From Sinorhizobium meliloti (lineage in GTDB: Bacteria > Pseudomonadota > Alphaproteobacteria > Rhizobiales > Rhizobiaceae): a stretch of DNA of 32,000 nucleotides. The position numbers and the translations under genes were made by a program. Each line of letters starts with the position of its first letter. The first letter of the stretch is position 1. The notes under the pieces are model-generated. The model was not told the DNA's origin. It made no database searches and worked only from the letters and a program-made list of their open reading frames with translations. This document shows, one piece after another, positions 1-23,449 of this stretch. The stretch lies in assembly GCF_017876815.1 (NCBI RefSeq), contig NZ_JAGIOS010000003.1, positions 1,110,001-1,142,000 on the forward strand. Reading direction: 5' to 3'.

Positions 1-534
1 GTCGCCGATCCGGAGAGCGGCAGGCCGCTCCCGAAAGGCGAAACGGGGATGATCGAGGTGAAGGGCCCGAACGTGTTCAAGGGCTATTGGCGCATGCCCG
101 AAAAGACGCAGAGCGAGTTCCGCGCCGACGGTTTCTTCATAACCGGCGATCTCGGCAGGATCGACGAGCGCGGCTACGTCCATATCGTCGGGCGAGGAAA
201 GGATCTCGTGATCTCCGGCGGTTACAACATTTATCCGAAGGAGGTCGAAACCGAGATCGATCAGATGCCGGGCGTCGTGGAAACGGCTGTGATTGGGCTG
301 CCGCATCCGGATTTCGGCGAAGGCGTCACGGCTGTGGTCGTCCGGAAGCCCGGTGCGGCCATCGACGAACGCGCCATTCTCGATGGTCTGGAAGGTCGCC
401 TCGCGCGCTACAAGCAACCGAAACGGGTGATCTTCGTGGACGACCTGCCGCGCAATACGATGGGCAAAGTCCAGAAGAACGTACTTCGCGAAACATATGC
501 CCGTCTGTACGCAGGAGCCGAAGCGCGTGTGTAG
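1..534 (+). CDS. AMP-dependent acyl-CoA synthetase/ligase, C-terminal part (MatB-like malonyl-CoA synthetase); the 5' end lies outside the window
   Basis: The reading frame is open from base 1. The C-terminal adenylate-forming-enzyme motifs are present: GDLGRIDERGYVHIVGRGKDLVISGGYNIYPKEVE and DDLPRNTMGKVQKNVLR. Confidence 0.85.
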   Translation, partial: VADPESGRPLPKGETGMIEVKGPNVFKGYWRMPEKTQSEFRADGFFITGDLGRIDERGYVHIVGRGKDLVISGGYNIYPKEVETEIDQMPGVVETAVIGLPHPDFGEGVTAVVVRKPGAAIDERAILDGLEGRLARYKQPKRVIFVDDLPRNTMGKVQKNVLRETYARLYAGAEARV

Positions 535-567
535 GCGTCGCGCCCGTATGCCGGAGACATCGGCGCT

Positions 568-1050
568 TTATGAGATGGCTAGGATTTCGAGCTCCTGATC
601 GCCGACACTCGCGACGTCCCCGACAGATTTGCCCATGAGAACCCTTGCCACCGGGGACACGTAGGAGATCGACCCGGCCTTTGGATCGGCTTCATCCTCT
701 CCGACGATCCGGTATTTCTGCACCCGCCCGTCATCACGGCTGAAGGTGACGGTGCTTCCAAAGGCGACTACATCAAAAGAAGCCGGATCGGGGACAAGCT
801 GAGCCGTTCGAACTCTTTCCGCGAAGTAGCGCAGCTCACGCAAGGGGCCGGCCGACTGCCGCCGCCGCTCGTTCACGTCCTCGATCGTGCTTGTGGCATC
901 GAAGGCTTCGCGAGCCTGTTGGAGGTGCAATTCCAGAGCCTTCAATCCCGTTTCGGTGACAAGGTTCGGATGGGGTGAGATCGGCCGGTCAGGCAACAGT
1001 GTTTCCGAGGCCGTTTCGGCACTTTCTTCCTTGATGAAGGCAACGCTCAT
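568..1050 (-). CDS. GreA/GreB-family transcription elongation factor-like protein (Rnk-like)
   Basis: 160-aa ORF. The C-terminal domain, YRIVGEDEADPKAGSISYVSPVARVLMGKSVGDV, is typical of the Gre-factor FKBP-like domain. A GGAG sits about 8 nt upstream of the ATG. Confidence 0.8.
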   Translation of the reverse strand: MSVAFIKEESAETASETLLPDRPISPHPNLVTETGLKALELHLQQAREAFDATSTIEDVNERRRQSAGPLRELRYFAERVRTAQLVPDPASFDVVAFGSTVTFSRDDGRVQKYRIVGEDEADPKAGSISYVSPVARVLMGKSVGDVASVGDQELEILAIS

Positions 1051-1175
1051 CGGCGAACTCCGTTTAGACGTGGCGCTCTCTTCGTACGGAGCGATCGCAC
1101 GTTATTTTCTCGGAACTATATACGGCGATGATAGGAGCCGACAGTGTCGAGTTTCTGCTCATTCTCCCCCCCGAC

Positions 1176-1200
1176 GGAATAGAAGCCTCTCCGTTCCGTT
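1176..1200 (+). promoter_or_regulatory. Candidate ECF-type promoter P1 (GGAATAGA-N-CCGTT) upstream of the 237-aa gene
   Basis: The sequence is GGAATAGAAGCCTCTCCGTTCCGTT: GGAAT, a spacer of exactly 16 nt, then CGTT, lying 31 nt upstream of the ATG at 1231. The same motif recurs at 2544-2568(-), 3402-3426(-) and 3947-3971(+). Confidence 0.55.
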
Positions 1201-1230
1201 ACTCCCGGGCCATTCAACGGGAGAAGCGGG

Positions 1231-1944
1231 ATGTTAAGTTTCCTGAAGAAAGATCCGCAGGTCATTCAGTTTGTCTGCCATCCGGAAGACGATGGCGTCA
1301 TCGCGCCGCCGCTACCGGCCAAATCGGTTCTGCCGGATTGGTTCCGCCGGCTGCCGGCGGTCGACAAAGGGCACCTGTCGGCAACCAACAACGGTCTGAC
1401 CGTCAAACGCTGCATGCCCTTTCTCGATGCTATGACCACCGGCTGGATTCTGCCGATCGCCGCTACGGTGCGCCTTGACGTCAAGGATGACGGCCGCAGC
1501 GTCGATGCAGGCTGGGAGTTCGACCGGGTGATGGTCAGCAACCACGGCGCCCACCAGGTGGCGGGCAATCCGAAAGAGCCCTCCCCGCCCTGCAAGTTTC
1601 ACAATTACTGGTCGATTCGCACGCCGCCGGGATGGAGTTGCCTGTTTCTGCCGCCGCTAAACCGCCCCGGACAGCACTTCGAATGTGTAGCGGGCATTGT
1701 CGATACGGACAGCTATAGCGCTCATATCCATTTTCCGTTCTTCGCGACGGCGCCGGATGGCCTTCACGTCGTCGAAAAGGGAACGCCGCTTGTACAGGTG
1801 ATACCCTTCCGCCGTGCCGATGCGGCGGTCACGGCAGAAATCCGCGCCGAAACCCGCGCGGATGCTACCGAGCGCGAGGCAATCCATCGGAACACCCTCG
1901 CCGGAGAAGGCTGGTATCGCAAGTCGGCGCGCGCCGCGCGCTAG
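1231..1944 (+). CDS. Conserved hypothetical protein, 237 aa, no signal peptide (possibly a DUF6065-type family; not verifiable here)
   Basis: Clean ORF with a GGGAGAAG SD 5 nt upstream of the ATG and GC-rich third codon positions. It is preceded by promoter motif P1. Its stop codon TAG (1942-1944) lies inside the CTAGAGC start of the dispersed repeat. Confidence 0.7.
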   Translation: MLSFLKKDPQVIQFVCHPEDDGVIAPPLPAKSVLPDWFRRLPAVDKGHLSATNNGLTVKRCMPFLDAMTTGWILPIAATVRLDVKDDGRSVDAGWEFDRVMVSNHGAHQVAGNPKEPSPPCKFHNYWSIRTPPGWSCLFLPPLNRPGQHFECVAGIVDTDSYSAHIHFPFFATAPDGLHVVEKGTPLVQVIPFRRADAAVTAEIRAETRADATEREAIHRNTLAGEGWYRKSARAAR

Positions 1945-2052
1945 AGCACTTCCAGGAAGGTACGTGGCGATTTTCCGTCCACAAGTGCATAACTTCAAAG
2001 GGTTAGAGGGCTAGAGCGTTTCATGTCTCGATGAACAGGGAAACACTCTAAA
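1941..2052 (+). repeat. Dispersed intergenic repeat, copy A (CTAGAGCACTTCCAGG...TTTTCCGTCC...CTTCAAAGGGTTAGAG...GATGAAC)
   Basis: It aligns by eye with 14318-14400 (same orientation) and with 23450-23520 and 24550-24617 (opposite orientation). It contains the hairpin GCACTT(1946-1951)/AAGTGC(1983-1988). Confidence 0.6.
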
Positions 2053-2064
2053 CGGTCCGATCAG

Positions 2065-2107
2065 ACAAGAGAGCGGGGGCCGGAATGTCCGGCCCCCGCT
2101 CTCTTGT
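2065..2107. terminator. Strong GC-rich hairpin, probably a bidirectional terminator between convergent genes
   Basis: The sequence is ACAAGAGAGCGGGGGCCGG-aatgt-CCGGCCCCCGCTCTCTTGT, a perfect stem of about 19 bp. It sits between the 237-aa gene (+) and the NSSS-repeat gene (-). Confidence 0.8.
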
Positions 2108-2131
2108 CGCACCTTCAACTTTTCCGCAATC

Positions 2132-2494
2132 TCAGCGCCCTGTGTGCCACAGCTTGCCTGGACGGTACGACCGGTCTGACCGGTTCGAGCTCGAATTGGA
2201 CGAACGATTCGAGGAGGAGTTCGACGAACTGTTCGAGGATGAATTAGAGCTCGAATTCGAGGAACTGTTGGACGAAGAGTTGGAACTCGAATTGCTGGAG
2301 GAGTTGGAACTCGAATTGGATGAGCTGTTGCCGGCGACTATGATCTCGCCGTCGGTCCGGCCCGTCTGGGCGGTTTGCGTCGAAGTGCGATCCACGCCGG
2401 GAAATAAGGGGGCATATTCCCTTGCTTCGGCCGCAGAGCCCACGAATGCCGCCAGGCCGGCAGCGATTGCCTTGTTCGTCCAGTTCTTTGCCAT
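2132..2494 (-). CDS. Small secreted Asn/Ser tetrapeptide-repeat protein (120 aa; signal peptide followed by 13 NSSS-type units)
   Basis: The start was moved to the ATG at 2494, which has an AAGGAG SD 8 nt upstream. The N-terminus MAKNWTNKAIAAGLAAFVGSAAEA looks like a Sec signal peptide with an AxA cleavage site. Promoter motif P2 lies 50 nt upstream, and the terminator hairpin lies downstream. Confidence 0.7.
   Translation of the reverse strand: MAKNWTNKAIAAGLAAFVGSAAEAREYAPLFPGVDRTSTQTAQTGRTDGEIIVAGNSSSNSSSNSSSNSSSNSSSNSSSNSSSNSSSNSSSNSSSNRSSNSSSNRSDRSYRPGKLWHTGR
2174..2329 (-). repeat. 13 tandem 12-nt (4-codon) units encoding NSSS x10, NRSS, NSSS, NRSD
   Basis: Read directly from the sequence. 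The units use different synonymous Ser and Asn codons (AGC/AGT/TCG/TCC/TCT/TCA; AAC/AAT). The repeat is therefore much more regular at the protein level than at the DNA level. Confidence 0.9.
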
Positions 2495-2543
2495 CTCATC
2501 TACTCCTTGTGAAAACCGGACCGGTTCTTCGGTCCGCAGGAGT

Positions 2544-2568
2544 AACGGCCGGTGCGCGCCTCTATTCC
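2544..2568 (-). promoter_or_regulatory. Candidate ECF-type promoter P2 upstream of the NSSS-repeat gene
   Basis: The minus strand reads GGAATAGAGGCGCGCACCGGCCGTT followed by ACTCC. P1 has the same -35 extension (GGAATAGA) and the same CCGTTACTCC -10 region. The spacer is exactly 16 nt. Confidence 0.55.
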
Positions 2569-2590
2569 ATGATCGCAATTTTTGATGCAC

Positions 2591-3376
2591 TTACCGTTGC
2601 GCACCTTGGAGTTCGCTGAGGGCTCTGGCCTCTTCCGCTGCCTCGAGCGGCGCCCCTGCATCGATCGCGGTCAGATAGGCGTCGAGCGTTTCCGTGGAAG
2701 ATGCAGGAGCATAACCGCCGGTGGCTCCGGGTGCGATGACGGCGAACGTCACGCGCCACTCTGACCCGGCGCGGCAGGCAACCGAAACCACTGTTGAGCG
2801 ATCGTCCGAGTCCAGCTCGAACTCGCGGCACAGCGCCTGCGCATTGTCACGGAATGTCGCAATCGCCCGGAAACGTTGGTCGGAACCTGGCAACCGCCGT
2901 TCCTCGCCTGCGGCGACCGTGGCGAGCGCCTCGTCAAGCGCAGGGCTGCCGATGGCGGCAACGCCCGAGCCACCCTCGATCGGCGCCTCGACACTTCCCC
3001 GCAGCCAATATCCGCCGAACCCCGCAACGACAGCCGCCAGAGAGGCGGCGACGGGAGCGAGCCATCGACTTCTGTGAGATTCGTTCGCAGCGCGGCGCGG
3101 GAAAGGCAGGATGCCCGCGCCCGATACCGAAGGTGGCGACGTCTTCTCCATCACCATTCTTTCGACCGCACGCTTGAGCTCGGAAGGTACCGGCTCATCG
3201 AGCAGCGGCTCCATAGCGGCCTTGGCCGCATGGCGCGTTTCGATGAAGAGTGCCACCCGCGCGACCAGCGCATCATCCGTTTCCATCGCTCGTTCTACTT
3301 CGGCAGCAGTCCCGGTATCGAGCTCGCCGTCGGCGAACCGCATCAGTATCTCATCCGAGAAGTCGGCTCTTGTCAT
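2591..3376 (-). CDS. Anti-sigma factor: N-terminal anti-sigma domain without a zinc motif, one TM helix, and a periplasmic domain of about 135 aa
   Basis: An ATGA overlap couples it to the sigma gene (3373-3376). The N-terminus MTRADFSDEILMRFADGELD is typical of ECF anti-sigma factors. The TM segment is WLAPVAASLAAVVAGFGGYW. Confidence 0.8.
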   Translation of the reverse strand: MTRADFSDEILMRFADGELDTGTAAEVERAMETDDALVARVALFIETRHAAKAAMEPLLDEPVPSELKRAVERMVMEKTSPPSVSGAGILPFPRRAANESHRSRWLAPVAASLAAVVAGFGGYWLRGSVEAPIEGGSGVAAIGSPALDEALATVAAGEERRLPGSDQRFRAIATFRDNAQALCREFELDSDDRSTVVSVACRAGSEWRVTFAVIAPGATGGYAPASSTETLDAYLTAIDAGAPLEAAEEARALSELQGAQR

Positions 3377-3912
3377 TCGTTTGCGCCCTTCATTGACTGA
3401 GAACGTCCGGTCGCCTGTGTTATTCCGGCAGCCTCGGCCAAACTCCTGCGTGCCCTCGCCAGTCGGCTCATGACCGTACCGATTGGAATGCCCATCACAT
3501 CGGCCGCTTCGCGATAGGATAGCTCCTCGACGCAGACCAGAAGAACCACCTCCCGCTGCTCGTCCGGCAATTCGGTGATCGCCTCCGCGACGGTCTTGAG
3601 GGTCAGCCGCGCTTCGGTTTCACGCTCGCCAGATGAACCGGCGATGTCATGACGCTCGGTGATATCGTCCTGCACGCCTGCGGTCTTCTGTCGGCGCACC
3701 TGGTCGATCCAGAGATTACGCAGGATACGGAATATCCAAGCATCAAAGCGCGTGCCCGGCTCGAAGCGCTCGGCACTGGCGAGTGCCCGCTCGCAGGCCG
3801 ACTGCACGAGATCATCGGCAACATCACGCGAGCCGCAGAGCGAGATGGCGAAGCGGCGCAGATTGGGCAGGAACGCCATGAGGCGTTCGCCGACATCTTT
3901 CACCGCATTGCT
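3373..3912 (-). CDS. ECF (sigma-70 group 4) RNA polymerase sigma factor
   Basis: Region 2 (DLVQSACERALASAERFEPGTRFDAWIFRILRNLWIDQVRR) and region 4 (LPDEQREVVLLVCVEELSYREAADVMGIPIGTVMSRLARARRSL) are both present. I prefer the ATG at 3912, which has a GGGAG SD, over the GTG at 3978, which has none. Confidence 0.9.
   Translation of the reverse strand, partial: SNAVKDVGERLMAFLPNLRRFAISLCGSRDVADDLVQSACERALASAERFEPGTRFDAWIFRILRNLWIDQVRRQKTAGVQDDITERHDIAGSSGERETEARLTLKTVAEAITELPDEQREVVLLVCVEELSYREAADVMGIPIGTVMSRLARARRSLAEAAGITQATGRSQSMKGANE
3402..3426 (-). promoter_or_regulatory. Candidate ECF-type promoter P4, located inside the 3' end of the sigma ORF and facing the anti-sigma gene
   Basis: The minus strand reads GGAATAACACAGGCGACCGGACGTT. 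The spacer is exactly 16 nt, and CGTTCT matches P3. The CGTT ends 26 nt upstream of the anti-sigma ATG at 3376. Confidence 0.5.
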
Positions 3913-3946
3913 CATCTCCCGAAACTCCGCAATTTGGCTAGAAGAG

Positions 3947-3971
3947 GGAATAGACCGACGACTCAGCCGTT
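3947..3971 (+). promoter_or_regulatory. Candidate ECF-type promoter P3 upstream of the S8 peptidase gene
   Basis: The sequence is GGAATAGACCGACGACTCAGCCGTT, with a spacer of exactly 16 nt, 87 nt upstream of the ATG at 4058. It lies in the divergent sigma/peptidase intergenic region. Confidence 0.55.
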
Positions 3972-4057
3972 CTGACACAATCTACAGGTAGCGGTCTCAT
4001 CGTCCAATGAATGCGCTATCCTCCTATGAGCGTGACCTAGCCGATTGAGGTTTTCGG

Positions 4058-5458
4058 ATGCTGACCAAGTTGAAACTGGCTCTGATCGCTCCCATTGCTG
4101 CAATCGCACTCGTATCCGGCGACATCCTGGCTCCTGGAAACATGATTGTGCGTGAAGTGATCGGAACCGGTCTCGCCTTGGCCGATGACGACGACGATGA
4201 CGGTGGGAGTGGCGGCAACCGCGGATCGGGCGGTTCCGGCCGCTCCGGCTCCTACGGCGCCGGCGCCGGATGGAGTGGCGGCAAGAGCCTGTTTCCATTC
4301 CGAGAGTTCCTGCCACGTCGAAGCATCCCGCGGCGCTCTCGCGCAGCCGCACCCGCTGCGCCGATACGAGCGCCCGATGAGATCGTCGGGCTGGGTTTCA
4401 GTCCGACGGAACTCGGCGAGTTGACAGCCACGGGCTTCGAGGTCCTCGAACGAAACACGATGACGTCATTCAACGCCGAGGTGATCAAGCTTCGCATTCC
4501 CCGCGGGCTGACTCTGGAAGCCGCTCGGCAGCGGGCGCGCGCCGCGGCCCCTCAGGCGGTGATCGACTTCAACCATTATTTCCGGCCGGAGCAGCATCGC
4601 GATGCCCCGTGCGTCACGAGCGACTGCCTGGCACGGAACGTGATCGGCTGGCCCTCGGCTCAAACGGGGCCTAGCAATTGCTCGGCCGGCGTGCGGATCG
4701 GCCTTGTCGATACGGCGATCAATCCCGATCACATCGCATTCGAGGCTCGCAACTTAGAGATCGTCCGTCTCGTCGACGAAGAATTGCCGGAGTCGGGCAG
4801 ACAGCACGGCACCGCTGTCGCGGCTTTGCTTGTCGGCTCAGCCAGTGGCCGTACGCCGGGCCTGATACCGGGTGGCAAGCTCATCGCCGTGGACGCATTT
4901 CATCGGGCGGGACGGCAAGACGACCGATCCGCCGCCTTCGATCTGGCGCGCGCACTCGACCTCCTTGCTGGGCGTCAGGTTCAGGTCATCAATCTCAGCC
5001 TTGCCGGGCCGCCCAATCTCCTGCTTGAACAGGCGGTCAAAAAGACGGGGGAGCGCGGGATCATCATGGTCGCCGCCGCGGGCAATGACGGTCCAAGAGC
5101 CGAGCCCGTCTATCCGGGTGCCTATGAAGAGGTCATTGCCGTCACCGCGACCGACAGGCGCAAACGGCCTTACCGGCGCGCCGGACGCGGAGAGCATATC
5201 GACTTCGCCGCCCCTGGCGTGGCGGTCTGGACAGCAGCCTCGGTCAGCGGCGCGCGTCCGAAGACGGGAACCTCTTTCGCCGCCCCTTTCGTGACCGCGG
5301 CGGTGGCGATGATGAAAGCATCTGAGCCGGAGCTCGCTGCGGAGATGCTCCGCGACAGGCTGACCGGACATGCCGAAGATCTCGGAGATCCGGGAAAGGA
5401 TCCTGTCTTCGGCTGGGGCTTGTTGAACGCGCGAGCGATTTGCAAGGCGAAGTCCTGA
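4058..5458 (+). CDS. Secreted S8-family (subtilisin-like) serine peptidase
   Basis: The catalytic motifs occur in D-H-S order: GLVDTAINPDH, HGTAVAALLVG, AAAGNDG (oxyanion Asn) and GTSFAAPFVTAAVAMM. The N-terminus has a hydrophobic signal-like segment followed by a DDDDDDGGSGGNRGSGGSGRSGSYGAGAG low-complexity tract. Confidence 0.9.
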   Translation: MLTKLKLALIAPIAAIALVSGDILAPGNMIVREVIGTGLALADDDDDDGGSGGNRGSGGSGRSGSYGAGAGWSGGKSLFPFREFLPRRSIPRRSRAAAPAAPIRAPDEIVGLGFSPTELGELTATGFEVLERNTMTSFNAEVIKLRIPRGLTLEAARQRARAAAPQAVIDFNHYFRPEQHRDAPCVTSDCLARNVIGWPSAQTGPSNCSAGVRIGLVDTAINPDHIAFEARNLEIVRLVDEELPESGRQHGTAVAALLVGSASGRTPGLIPGGKLIAVDAFHRAGRQDDRSAAFDLARALDLLAGRQVQVINLSLAGPPNLLLEQAVKKTGERGIIMVAAAGNDGPRAEPVYPGAYEEVIAVTATDRRKRPYRRAGRGEHIDFAAPGVAVWTAASVSGARPKTGTSFAAPFVTAAVAMMKASEPELAAEMLRDRLTGHAEDLGDPGKDPVFGWGLLNARAICKAKS

Positions 5459-5755
5459 GCTAAGCCGCTTCGTCCGGCGCAAGACGTGCATGGGAAGGGC
5501 CAAACCCACCGGCCGGCCACTCGCAACAACCGCACAATCGGCGCTGCGTGAAGACGCTGCAGCGTTGCGAGGTCGATGTGCCTAGCTTTCTTGCGGGCGC
5601 ATTGAATTGTTCGTGATCCCGTGCGACTTTCGAAACGCATAATGGGAGCCTCTTCCGTGAGGTGCTCTACGCTCACTGGCGGCCGGGCGGGTGATTATCG
5701 ACTGTCGGCCGCGTGCGGCCCAAAGCCGAATGTTTCCAAGCGAAAGGACCACGCG

Positions 5756-6229
5756 ATGGCGAAGAATACGATTTGCCTATGGTACGATAAGGACGCCGAG
5801 GCTGCCGCTCGTTTCTACTGCGAGATCTTTCCTGACAGCAGGGTGAGTGCCGTGCACCGCGCACCCGGTGACTACCCCGCGGGCAAAGAGGGCGACGTGT
5901 TGACGGTCGACTTCAGCGTTGCGGGCATTCCCTGTATCGGCCTCAACGGGGGTCCCGCATTCAAGCACAACGAGGCCTTCTCGTTTCAGATCGCCACCGA
6001 CGATCAGGAAGAAACCGACCGCTACTGGAACGCCATCGTCGGCAATGGCGGCAAGGAAAGCGCCTGCGGCTGGTGCAAGGACAAATGGGGGATTTCCTGG
6101 CAGATCACTCCGCGCGTGCTGACCGACGCGATGGCGGCCGGCGGCGACGAAGCAAAGCGGGCGTTCACGGCGATGATGGACATGAAAAAAATAGACGTCG
6201 CTGCAATCGAGGCGGCGCGGCGCGGTTGA
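5756..6229 (+). CDS. VOC/glyoxalase-superfamily protein (PhnB-like, 3-demethylubiquinone-9 3-methyltransferase-domain family)
   Basis: The start was moved to MAKNTICLWYDKDAEAAARFY. The signature ACGWCKDKWGISWQI is typical of this family. Confidence 0.85.
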   Translation: MAKNTICLWYDKDAEAAARFYCEIFPDSRVSAVHRAPGDYPAGKEGDVLTVDFSVAGIPCIGLNGGPAFKHNEAFSFQIATDDQEETDRYWNAIVGNGGKESACGWCKDKWGISWQITPRVLTDAMAAGGDEAKRAFTAMMDMKKIDVAAIEAARRG

Positions 6230-6305
6230 TGCTCCACCGAGACTGCGGCCCAGTTTGCGGCAAGAGCGTGTCCGCGTGTCCCTGTGCAGACGCTCGGACC
6301 GCCGG

Positions 6306-8495
6306 CTAGAAGGAGGTTCCTTGGGCCTTGTCTGTGCCAAGAAGCTGACGAAGTGAATTCTTCGACATCGGCCTGGACAAATGGAATCCCTGCAATTCGT
6401 CACAGCCCAGCTTGCGCAGGATCTCGCTCTGCTCCTCGGTTTCCACGCCTTCGGCGGTGATGCGCAGGCCTTTCGCACGTGCGATGCCGACGATGGACTG
6501 CACGACCGCCACACCACCACCGGGCCGGTCGAAGGCGTGGACGAAAGAGCGATCGATTTTGATCCGGTCGACCTCCAGGCGCTGCAACCGCCCAAATGAA
6601 GAGAATCCCGTACCGAAATCGTCAAGTGCGAACTTGACGCCGAACTCGCGTAGTGCCGTGATGTTTTTTTCGCAGACGCCGGCTTCGTCAAGGAGAGCAG
6701 TTTCGGTGATCTCGAGCTCCAGTCTCGACGGCTCGATCCCGAACTGGCGCAGCAGTGAGAGAACTTGAGCAGCATAATGGCGCTGTGCAAGCTCGACCGC
6801 CGAGACGTTGACTGCAATGTCGAGACCCGGAAATTCACGCGCGGTAGAACAGGCTTCCTTCAGCACGAACGCGCCGAGCCGATCGATGAGGCCGGCAGTC
6901 TCCGCAAGCGGAACGAAGGCATCCGGTGCTATAGGGCCTTTGCTCGGATGCCGCCAGCGAATGAGAGCTTCCAGCGAGCTTATCTCGTGCGACTGCGCAG
7001 AATATACGGGCTGATAGAAGACTTCGAGCTGATTGCCGGCGTCCAGCGCCGCACGCAGATCCTGTTCCAGGTCCCGTTTCGTTCTGATCAGGTCGTCCAT
7101 ATGAGGACCAAAGACTGCGTAGCGGTTCCGCCCGGCCGATTTGGCGTGGTAAAGCGCGATATCGGCCTTCCGCGTGATCTCGATGGGGTCGGCGTCATTT
7201 CCGGTCGCGACCGCCACACCTATCGAAAGCCCGATGAGAATGGGCTGTCCGTCTATCTCGAAAGGTCGGCGGATTGCAGCGATCAGCGCGTCACAGAGTT
7301 TCTCCACCTCGTCCTGGCGGGTACGCGCGACGATGATGGTAAACTCATCACCACCAATTCTGGAAATCGCGGCACCAGCAGCGGTTTCCTTAAGCCGCTT
7401 CGCGACCTCGACCATCAGCCGATCGCCAACGGGATGGCCGAGTGTGTCGTTCACTTGCTTGAAGCGGTCGAGATCGAGATACAGAAGAGCATTGGCTTGA
7501 TCGATTGTCGACGTCGCGACGACCCGCGCCAGCAACCGGTTGAAAGACGCACGGTTGGCGAGCCCGGTCAACGGATCGTGACGCGCCAGATGGTCGAGCT
7601 CCGCCTGGCTTTCCTGCAGGCGTCTCGACCGCCTCCGCAGTACGACACTGAGCGCGCTCGTGAGGGCAAAAAGGAGGGCGCCGGCGACGAGAAGCACAGG
7701 CGCCGTGGCCTTCATCACATCGGCACCGGGTCTGAACGGGAGCCAGGAGAAATATCCTATCGTTTCTCGGGATGATGAAACGATCGGAGCATAGGACCGC
7801 TGTCGACCGAGTTCCGGCAAAACAGAAAAGCGCAGGTCCTCAAAGCCATAATCGTCACCGAGATGCGTCAGGAAATCGCCGTCGAGAAAACGGACCGCTA
7901 AGTGGAGATATTCCCTGCCGGGCTCCTGAACAATATCACCGGTGTCCGACACGATCGGCTTCACGCTGATAATCGCCGGGCGGCCCGCGATGCGTACGAG
8001 ATCGCTCTCGCCGATGGACAGCACCTGCTCACTCGTTCCTCCCTCGTCGCCTGCTGCGAGCCGCTCTTGCAGCTTGGCGATGAGCGGCATTGCTTCGGGT
8101 CCTATGTTGCTGAAAGCTTCCTGCTCGTTGGTCTGGCCGGCAAGAAAGGCGTATAACGGCTTACGATCCGGACTGATCACGAATGCGCCGTCGTGTCGGA
8201 AATAGCTGTTCATCCAGCTACCCAGGTTAGAATCGACCCACCGCGGATCCCATTCCTGCGACACTTTTCTGACGGCGTCATCCCAAACGGTGGCACTCTC
8301 CTGATCATGGGCGATGCTACCTTGCATCTTGGAGATGACAAGCTCGACGAGGTGTTGCTGCCGCTTCACCGCCAAAGCGTCCGATTGCTGCGCCGACCAG
8401 CGGACGGCCAGGTATATGCCTCCCATCAAGGCCATTGCGATGGCCAAGGGCAGCATCCACCTGAAAACCGCGACTTTGCCAGCCACAAACCTCAT
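6306..8495 (-). CDS. Membrane-bound GGDEF-EAL protein (diguanylate cyclase/phosphodiesterase) with a periplasmic CHASE4-like sensor
   Basis: RIGGDEFTII (GGDEF) and LEALIRW (EAL) are both intact. Two TM segments flank a sensor region of about 240 aa. The start was set at the ATG at 8495, which has an AGGAGGAG SD 6 nt upstream. Confidence 0.9.
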   Translation of the reverse strand: MRFVAGKVAVFRWMLPLAIAMALMGGIYLAVRWSAQQSDALAVKRQQHLVELVISKMQGSIAHDQESATVWDDAVRKVSQEWDPRWVDSNLGSWMNSYFRHDGAFVISPDRKPLYAFLAGQTNEQEAFSNIGPEAMPLIAKLQERLAAGDEGGTSEQVLSIGESDLVRIAGRPAIISVKPIVSDTGDIVQEPGREYLHLAVRFLDGDFLTHLGDDYGFEDLRFSVLPELGRQRSYAPIVSSSRETIGYFSWLPFRPGADVMKATAPVLLVAGALLFALTSALSVVLRRRSRRLQESQAELDHLARHDPLTGLANRASFNRLLARVVATSTIDQANALLYLDLDRFKQVNDTLGHPVGDRLMVEVAKRLKETAAGAAISRIGGDEFTIIVARTRQDEVEKLCDALIAAIRRPFEIDGQPILIGLSIGVAVATGNDADPIEITRKADIALYHAKSAGRNRYAVFGPHMDDLIRTKRDLEQDLRAALDAGNQLEVFYQPVYSAQSHEISSLEALIRWRHPSKGPIAPDAFVPLAETAGLIDRLGAFVLKEACSTAREFPGLDIAVNVSAVELAQRHYAAQVLSLLRQFGIEPSRLELEITETALLDEAGVCEKNITALREFGVKFALDDFGTGFSSFGRLQRLEVDRIKIDRSFVHAFDRPGGGVAVVQSIVGIARAKGLRITAEGVETEEQSEILRKLGCDELQGFHLSRPMSKNSLRQLLGTDKAQGTSF

Positions 8496-23142: not shown

Positions 23143-23449
23143 GTAAACAGGGCTCTCGCGGCTCTTCAAGGGATCGATTGAATCTCAGCCGGAGTCATGG
23201 AGGGACAACTCTGCTCGACGCGCGACCCCCGGGTGCGCAATCTCGGTTAACGTGCATGAACGTACCAGACGCGGTTTTGTTCCCGCCATTTTTTGACTCG
23301 CGCATTTTCGGACCGGCAGCGTCATCCAAGGAGTACCGTTGATCGCACGCGCGCCGCAGGTTGGTCACGGCGTCCTTCTTGAAGGATATGGCGAGAAGCT
23401 GCCCAGCTCCTTCGCCGTTCGCTAATGAGGACGCGACCTAGAATCGTGA

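Follow-up and report, generated by a model that had tools for sequence, protein, structure and literature searches.

A 32,000-nucleotide stretch of Sinorhizobium meliloti DNA (contig NZ_JAGIOS010000003.1, positions 1,110,001 to 1,142,000; here called the window) carries rpoE6-ecfR6 (SMa0143-SMa0144), the RpoE6/EcfR6 sigma/anti-sigma module of pSymA, which belongs to group ECF26 of the extracytoplasmic function (ECF) sigma factors. This module probably operates by negative feedback through the anti-sigma factor without direct self-amplification of the sigma factor, by means of an ECF26-type promoter embedded in rpoE6 itself. The core of the circuit at this locus is already known from Lang et al. 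(2018, mSphere, PMC6180224), who over-expressed the ECF sigma factors of S. meliloti one by one and determined the positions of 5' ends.

The motif GGAATA-N15-CGTT has four exact matches in the 32 kb, whereas 0.01 are expected (100 shuffles). All four fall within 1176-3971 (2.8 kb), and each copy stands directly upstream of a gene start. On a position weight matrix (PWM) built from 195 motif instances of related loci, the four sites score 20-24 bits, and they fit the cross-species ECF26 target consensus quoted by Lang et al. (-35 GGAATA, -10 (C)GT; PMC6180224). The internal copy, GGAATAACACAGGCGACCGGACGTT (3402-3426, minus strand, 23.1 bits), has its -35 element GGAATA at 3426-3421 and its -10 element CGTT at 3405-3402, separated by a 15-nt spacer, and is encoded by the RpoE6 codons Gly-164 and Ile-165 (-35) and Arg-171 and Ser-172 (-10). 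It lies in the final 54 nt of the sigma open reading frame (ORF) with its 3' end 26 nt from the anti-sigma ATG, so that the placement given by the first-pass annotation (positions 3402-3426, the last 55 nt or so of the ORF) was correct, and it is listed as the ecfR6 promoter in Table 1 of Lang et al. (PMC6180224). A second copy, GGAATAGACCGACGACTCAGCCGTT at 3947-3971 on the plus strand (GGAATA 3947-3952, CGTT 3968-3971; 23.7 bits), belongs to the RpoE6-dependent promoter of the divergent peptidase gene SMa0142 (3947-3980, transcription start site (TSS) 3980).

When the sequences of Lang Table 1 were placed on the window, the published 5' ends fell at 3393 (minus), 3971 (minus), 3980 (plus), and 1212 (plus). 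The anti-sigma gene ecfR6 accordingly has two published starts, one at 3971 for a bicistronic transcript and one at 3393 for a monocistronic transcript. The latter is the 9th nucleotide after the internal CGTT and lies 17 nt upstream of the ecfR6 ATG (PMC6180224); an internal start near 3395 had been anticipated from the sequence. Primers specific for ecfR6 in rapid amplification of 5' cDNA ends (5'-RACE) are given in Data Set S5 of the same paper.

The promoter of rpoE6 itself (3971-4007, minus strand) is not of the ECF type. It consists of TTGGAC at 4007-4002, 17 nt, and TAGATT at 3984-3979, with the start at 3971, and was classed as RpoD/RpoH-like by Lang et al. (PMC6180224, Table 1 and footnote). 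S. medicae, S. fredii, and R. gallicum retain the pattern TTGGA(C/G)-N17-TAGATT. A strict sigma-70 consensus scan of 2000-4300 called no promoter, the rpoE6 promoter included, and the RpoD/RpoH-like label therefore rests on Lang et al. together with this conservation in Sinorhizobium and R. gallicum. The start at 3971 has no entry in the RNA-seq TSS list of Schluter 2013, whereas the Lang footnote implies that both methods saw it; on this point the 5'-RACE result was relied on.

Over-expression of RpoE6 raised native ecfR6 by a log2 fold change of 3.56 (~12-fold), compared with 4.66 for SMa0142 and 6.51 for SMa0148, and SMa0146/SMa_ORF_1 was raised as well (PMC6180224). Because the insert of the RpoE6 plasmid ends ~20 nt past the rpoE6 stop, the ecfR6 signal is native and chromosomal. 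Among the over-expressed sigma factors only RpoE6 raised ecfR6 (Lang et al., PMC6180224), which speaks against cross-activation by paralogues as the purpose of the internal promoter.

The 5' end at 3393 might be a processing site of the bicistronic mRNA, with the motif conserved for another reason at the DNA level. Primary and processed ends are indistinguishable by standard 5'-RACE, and the Schluter list has no entry at 3393. However, the distance of 3393 from CGTT reproduces the geometry at the protease start, which was confirmed by RNA-seq (TSS0227, Rm1021 78900 = window 3980, 3625 reads), and at 23.1 bits the motif is a perfect promoter of the regulon. Furthermore, native ecfR6 rises 12-fold with RpoE6 despite the non-ECF promoter of rpoE6, and the position of the motif tracks the anti-sigma start across relatives, as described below. 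Processing is therefore a very improbable source of this end, and a start driven by RpoE6 is preferred.

The conservation of the internal promoter was assessed with close orthologues obtained by tblastn against plasmids, from annotated regions, and by a metagenome scan; the matches listed from a scan of genome contigs were mostly distant relatives. The DNA set covers Sinorhizobium, Ensifer, Rhizobium, Agrobacterium, Shinella, Neorhizobium, Pararhizobium, Aminobacter, Taklimakanibacter, a metagenome-assembled genome of Rhodobacterales, and metagenomic contigs. Beyond the sigma4 helix, an alignment of 21 homologues conserves only Gly-164, to a lesser degree Ile-165, Arg-171, and Ser-172, and the five residues between them are free to vary. 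At the DNA level every orthologue examined has the codons GGA ATA, five variable codons, and CGT TCN, with a fixed spacer length. In 25 of 25 non-identical orthologues (60-100% identity) GGA164, ATA165, and CGT171 are invariant, and Ser-172 is always TCN. Only 4 of the 72 conserved degenerate columns in these 25 orthologues use a single codon, and GGA164, ATA165, and CGT171 account for three of these (hypergeometric P=2.7e-4). These are non-preferred codons, with a usage of ~10% (GGA), 5% (ATA), and 9% (CGT) elsewhere in the gene after removal of the 25 motif codons, and other conserved residues have a median codon entropy of 1.21 bits.

An origin of the motif in constraint on the protein, with a Gly-Ile...Arg-Ser signature required by the sigma factor, or in chance would be in line with the amino acids, as Gly-164, Arg-171, and Ser-172 are invariant and Ile-165 nearly so. 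It does not explain why the synonymous positions are invariant too, and in rare codons, nor why the motif survives where the ORF has already ended. In the loci L008, L105, L106, L115, and L117 and in others the sigma ORF ends inside or just after the -35 element ('...LGIK*'), and a short stretch of non-coding spacer still holds the -10 element. Of 37 distinct junction sites, all 37 have GGAATA and 36 have CGTT, unconstrained positions included. The tail is also outside the sigma4 fold: this domain ends near residue 162 and the tail comprises residues 164-180, homologues in the Protein Data Bank align to RpoE6 residues up to 163 only, and in an AlphaFold2 model of moderate quality the last helix ends at 162 with a predicted local distance difference test score below 50 in the tail. 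Codon invariance, non-coding persistence, and the shuffle expectation effectively refute origins in coding constraint or chance, and this explanation is scarcely credible. The check that the first-pass annotation had proposed against itself, conservation of the motif no greater than the coding constraint explains, thus came out in favour of a promoter. As judged from these alignments, selection acts on the embedded promoter as DNA throughout the clade, beyond coding constraint.

The spacing within the junction points to the gene that the element serves. In 31 of 38 loci, 26-37 nt separate the -10 element from the anti-sigma start, whereas the sigma stop roams between -16 and +62 as counted from the -10 element; it is thus the anti-sigma gene for which the element is placed. 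In nearly all loci of the junction class a purine-rich A(A/G)(A/G)GG precedes the anti-sigma start by 7-12 nt. In the window this is AAGGG at 3386-3390 (minus strand), the probable Shine-Dalgarno sequence of ecfR6, which is encoded by a conserved Lys-Gly of the sigma tail. The most fitting reading of the RpoE6 tail is regulatory DNA that is translated, in which Gly-Ile spells the -35 element, Arg-Ser the -10 element, and Lys-Gly the putative Shine-Dalgarno sequence, with the +1 between the last two.

Fifty-five non-redundant relatives keep the divergent S8 peptidase, and the promoter layouts among these S8-linked loci are nearly exclusive of each other: 30 have a junction promoter only, 16 an upstream promoter only, 3 have the two together, and 6 have neither (Fisher P=1.5e-6, a value that ignores phylogeny and, as the junction loci sit in one clade, reflects few independent transitions). 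All loci with at least 60% identity are of the junction type, and in their spacer the motif lies on the strand of the protease gene, at a distance of 20-45 nt from the sigma start. None of these loci has an upstream ECF motif on the sigma strand except for regular-expression matches in L088 and L098, both among the three loci with both promoters, and the L088 match is the off-spacing GGAATG-N14-CGTT. In a rough neighbour-joining tree (no bootstrap) nearly all junction loci form one clade nested among upstream-type lineages. On this picture the junction promoter is derived: it took the place of the autoregulatory promoter and has been stably maintained, the near-exclusivity of the two layouts suggesting that one replaced the other.

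In the upstream-class relatives L006, L014, L015, and L044 the sigma-facing and protease-facing ECF promoters stand back-to-back, and in L006 the two -35 boxes overlap as the palindrome GGAATAATTCC, about 50-60 nt upstream of the sigma start. This arrangement may be the ancestral bidirectional state, of which the RpoE6 clade lost one arm.

In the window, no ECF motif on the sigma strand upstream of rpoE6 was found by regular expression at 0-1 mismatch, and the best same-strand PWM candidate in 3930-4300 (minus strand) scores -9.3 bits. The proposals of the first-pass annotation that the sigma gene has no motif and that the spacer between sigma and peptidase genes carries one on the opposite strand only thus hold even at low stringency, GGAATAGACCGACGACTCAGCCGTT being the only copy there. 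This result bears on the question whether the sigma gene is nevertheless positively regulated, either indirectly, with RpoE6 activating rpoH2 and an RpoH-type promoter then driving rpoE6, or via a weak unrecognised site, in a mixed feedback resembling that of E. coli rpoE. In support of such a loop, rpoH2 was activated by RpoE6 over-expression and the rpoE6 promoter is RpoD/RpoH-like (PMC6180224). In addition, rpoE3, an ECF26 paralogue with a similar promoter, is partly RpoH1-dependent, and Lang et al. first took the induction of ecfR6 as a sign of autogenous regulation (PMC6180224). The native rpoE6 level, moreover, is inseparable from the plasmid copy. On the other hand, the best candidate on the sigma strand scores no higher than stated above, junction and upstream promoters are near-exclusive among relatives, the ECF motif in the spacer faces the protease throughout the clade (the matches in L088 and L098 apart), and the RpoH dependence of rpoE6 is so far only supposed. 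Positive regulation of the sigma gene is therefore regarded as unlikely, although clearly less so than the two explanations of the internal motif and its 5' end weighed above.

For negative feedback without direct self-amplification, the following sequence of events is proposed. A constitutive or heat-shock-type promoter would set a fixed pool of sigma and anti-sigma factor that is stoichiometrically coupled. The ATGA overlap of the rpoE6 stop and the ecfR6 start (3373-3376, minus strand; anti-sigma ATG 3376-3374), noticed already in the first inspection of the sequence and present in most orthologues, would allow translational coupling on the bicistronic mRNA. An envelope signal would then free RpoE6, which would transcribe its small local regulon together with an anti-sigma-only mRNA that carries its own Shine-Dalgarno sequence (AAGGG), and the surplus EcfR6 would re-capture the sigma factor. 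With negative feedback and no direct self-amplification, the output should be bounded and its shut-off fast.

A second negative arm may lie in the spacer. The rpoE6 promoter (4007-3971, minus strand) and the SMa0142 promoter (3947-3980, plus strand) overlap head-on, their transcripts overlap by 10 bp at the 5' ends, and each -10 element lies over +1 to +10 of the other. RNA polymerase (RNAP) binding at the two promoters should therefore be mutually exclusive, and RNAP-RpoE6 at the protease promoter may dampen rpoE6 transcription by occlusion.

Several points weigh against this account. Only 5'-RACE, done in an over-expressing strain, has revealed the internal 5' end (PMC6180224), and it is missing from the RNA-seq list as noted above. 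The Schluter list does contain another sense-internal start within rpoE6, at Rm1021 79346 = window 3534 (115 reads, no ECF motif upstream). Native rpoE6 mRNA cannot be separated from the plasmid copy in the arrays, so that the missing self-induction is deduced from the promoter type. Promoter occlusion is inferred from geometry only, and the feedback dynamics are a proposal. Finally, an indirect positive loop through RpoH2 is possible. Of the feedback suggested by the first-pass annotation, the drive on the anti-sigma gene is supported and direct autoregulation appears to be absent; its statement that the sigma factor does not amplify itself is to be narrowed with regard to this indirect loop.

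A cis-antisense RNA (SmelAR010/SMa_asRNA_51, start Rm1021 80279 = window 2601, plus strand) is located opposite the ecfR6 3' end. The start at 3534 or this antisense RNA could exert extra control on anti-sigma levels.

Taken together, a wider evolutionary reading can be put forward tentatively, and as a whole it is held to be possible rather than probable. In the S8-linked ECF26 clade (Rhizobiaceae, Phyllobacteriaceae, and further alphaproteobacteria) the ancestral self-activating promoter would have been replaced by a junction promoter for the anti-sigma gene only. In the RpoE6 subclade the sigma frame would then have been extended through this promoter, the last 17 residues being regulatory DNA. 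Together with the head-on overlap, this would yield a doubly negative, non-amplifying circuit, in which positive feedback would be only post-translational, e.g. by action of the co-induced S8 protease on the periplasmic domain of the anti-sigma factor.

Window positions 1000-5600 are 100% identical to pSymA-type megaplasmids of S. meliloti, and the counterpart in Rm1021 is pSymA 75-80 kb; Rm1021 differs from the window at 8 positions in 2400-4100, none of them in the promoters. The gene rpoE6 (SMa0143; 3373-3915, minus strand) encodes an ECF sigma factor of 180 residues that is 100% identical to S. meliloti records. It has Pfam Sigma70_r2 at residues 13-76 and Sigma70_r4_2 at 108-158 and no other domains, which is the ECF layout (expected length about 170-200 residues), and it scores 96.7 bits against NCBIfam TIGR02937 sigma70-ECF (cut-off 42.9). 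Its assignment to group ECF26 stems from the ECFfinder run of Lang et al. 2018 (PMC6180224). The annotated start in RefSeq and the Prokaryotic Genome Annotation Pipeline (PGAP) is ATG 3915-3913 and the stop is TGA 3375-3373; the upstream end at 3912 taken in the first reading needs this small correction. Lang et al. gave a GTG start (PMC6180224), and an alternative GTG is found at 3903. The GTG at 3978 of the longest ORF is unusable from the mapped transcript because it lies upstream of the start at 3971.

The gene ecfR6 (SMa0144; 2591-3376, minus strand), named and described by Lang et al. and called 'anti-sigma factor' by PGAP, encodes a predicted anti-sigma factor of 261 residues with one hydrophobic segment. 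Its profile matches are weak, with zf-HC2 at E=0.0085, under the Pfam cut-off, and sub-threshold NCBIfam anti-sigma hidden Markov models. The divergent regulon member SMa0142 (4058-5458, plus strand) encodes a secreted serine peptidase of the S8 (subtilisin) family (Pfam Peptidase_S8, E=3e-34). SMa0148 (1231-1944, plus strand), a gene of the local regulon, encodes a DUF6065 protein; its promoter at 1176-1200 (plus strand) has an ECF26-type motif, followed by the published start at 1212. An Rfam scan of window 1-8000 gave no match.

The remaining copy of the motif, at 2544-2568 (minus strand, 21.9 bits), is the promoter of a small ORF named 'SMa_ORF_1'. Two ORFs antisense to each other cover the repeat region 2132-2588. 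The one on the minus strand (2132-2494) encodes a small secreted-looking Ser/Asn-repeat protein and has a Shine-Dalgarno sequence AAGGAG in addition to the ECF26 promoter and a published start (Schluter TSS0230, Rm1021 80344 = window 2536). PGAP and the original annotation choose instead a Glu/Leu-rich ORF on the plus strand (SMa0146 type, about 2199-2588). The annotated strand at 2132-2588 is probably wrong.

Two further sites resemble ECF promoters. The sequence GGAACAAAACCGCGTCTGGTACGTT at 23259-23283 (minus strand) is like a general-stress promoter of the EcfG/RpoE2 type and scores 18.1 bits on the ECF26 matrix despite its GGAAC; a large ORF for a histidine kinase of the PAS/HWE type (20608 to about 23140, minus strand) follows about 90-115 nt downstream of it. 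The RpoE6-dependent promoter of SMa0139 was published as GGATTGAATACTTTATGTACCCGTGCGAC for Rm1021, whereas the window has GCATTGAATTGTTCGTGATCCCGTGCGAC at 5599-5632 (plus strand), a weak motif match of 2.8 bits. The Rm1021 promoter sequences of SMa0139 and SMa_sRNA_10 have no exact match in the window.

The locus studied by Lang et al. 2018 in S. meliloti Rm1021 is the same one. Their paper is undecided on autoregulation of the operon, and it contains no analysis of conservation or codon constraint, of the upstream-promoter topology in relatives, or of the head-on overlap of rpoE6 and SMa0142 promoters (PMC6180224). New here are the clade-wide codon conservation, the survival of the motif outside coding sequence, and the finding that the junction promoter and the canonical one almost exclude each other, all of which are unpublished as far as the literature was searched; the ECF26 subgroup descriptions of Casas-Pastor 2021 are outside this comparison. 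The evolutionary evidence raises confidence in a functional circuit, as the arrangement appears to be selected and alternates with the canonical one. It also illustrates how the codons of a host gene, and its apparent protein conservation, can be set by a promoter inside it. Pairs of ECF sigma and anti-sigma factors rank as the third major mode by which bacteria signal, and synthetic circuits make use of them as orthogonal parts. In most textbook cases one autoregulated promoter serves both the sigma and the anti-sigma gene, so that positive feedback is coupled with negative. A natural, conserved variant in which the two arms are separated, with a constitutive sigma factor and an inducible anti-sigma factor, would offer a ready-made design that is bounded and fast to reset.

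The FliA (sigma28)/FlgM system of enterobacteria likewise has a sigma factor that activates a promoter reserved for its anti-sigma factor. Unlike RpoE6, FliA belongs to another sigma group, its gene and that of FlgM are unlinked, the anti-sigma factor is exported, and fliA is also self-activated. Among ECF sigma factors in general, ~55% are predicted to be autoregulated and ~45% are not (PMC8103513). Within ECF26, S. meliloti RpoE1 and RpoE4 and the upstream-class S8-linked relatives (e.g. L006, L007, and L014-L019) share with RpoE6 the GGAATA/CGT(T/C) promoters, the sigma/anti-sigma operon, and often a divergent S8 protease. They differ from it in having the ECF promoter upstream of the sigma gene, as in canonical autoregulation, and none at the junction. 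S. meliloti RpoE3 (ECF26) resembles RpoE6 in that its sigma gene is on an RpoD/RpoH-like promoter without visible autoregulation, but ecfR3 was not induced by RpoE3 over-expression, so that this module lacks a feedback promoter for the anti-sigma gene (PMC6180224).

The closest parallel is rpoE-rseABC of E. coli. According to PMC8595263 (from Rhodius et al. 2006), the sigmaE-dependent promoter P3 of rseA lies inside rpoE and gives an anti-sigma-only transcript as a negative-feedback arm. According to the same paper, E. coli differs in that a sigmaE-dependent promoter is also present upstream of rpoE, providing positive autoregulation, and in that P3 is 228 nt upstream of rseA with a long leader regulated by small RNA, whereas the RpoE6 locus has a 17-nt leader and a promoter in the extreme 3' tail of the sigma gene. 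The two sigma factors also belong to different groups, ECF02 for E. coli sigmaE and ECF26 for RpoE6. The topology that the first-pass annotation had called unusual is thus real, but the term was too strong in view of the share of ECFs predicted not to be autoregulated and of this precedent. Lacking the upstream ECF promoter of the canonical layout, the rpoE6-ecfR6 locus fits the rseA P3 type, a sigma-dependent promoter for the anti-sigma gene inside the sigma gene.

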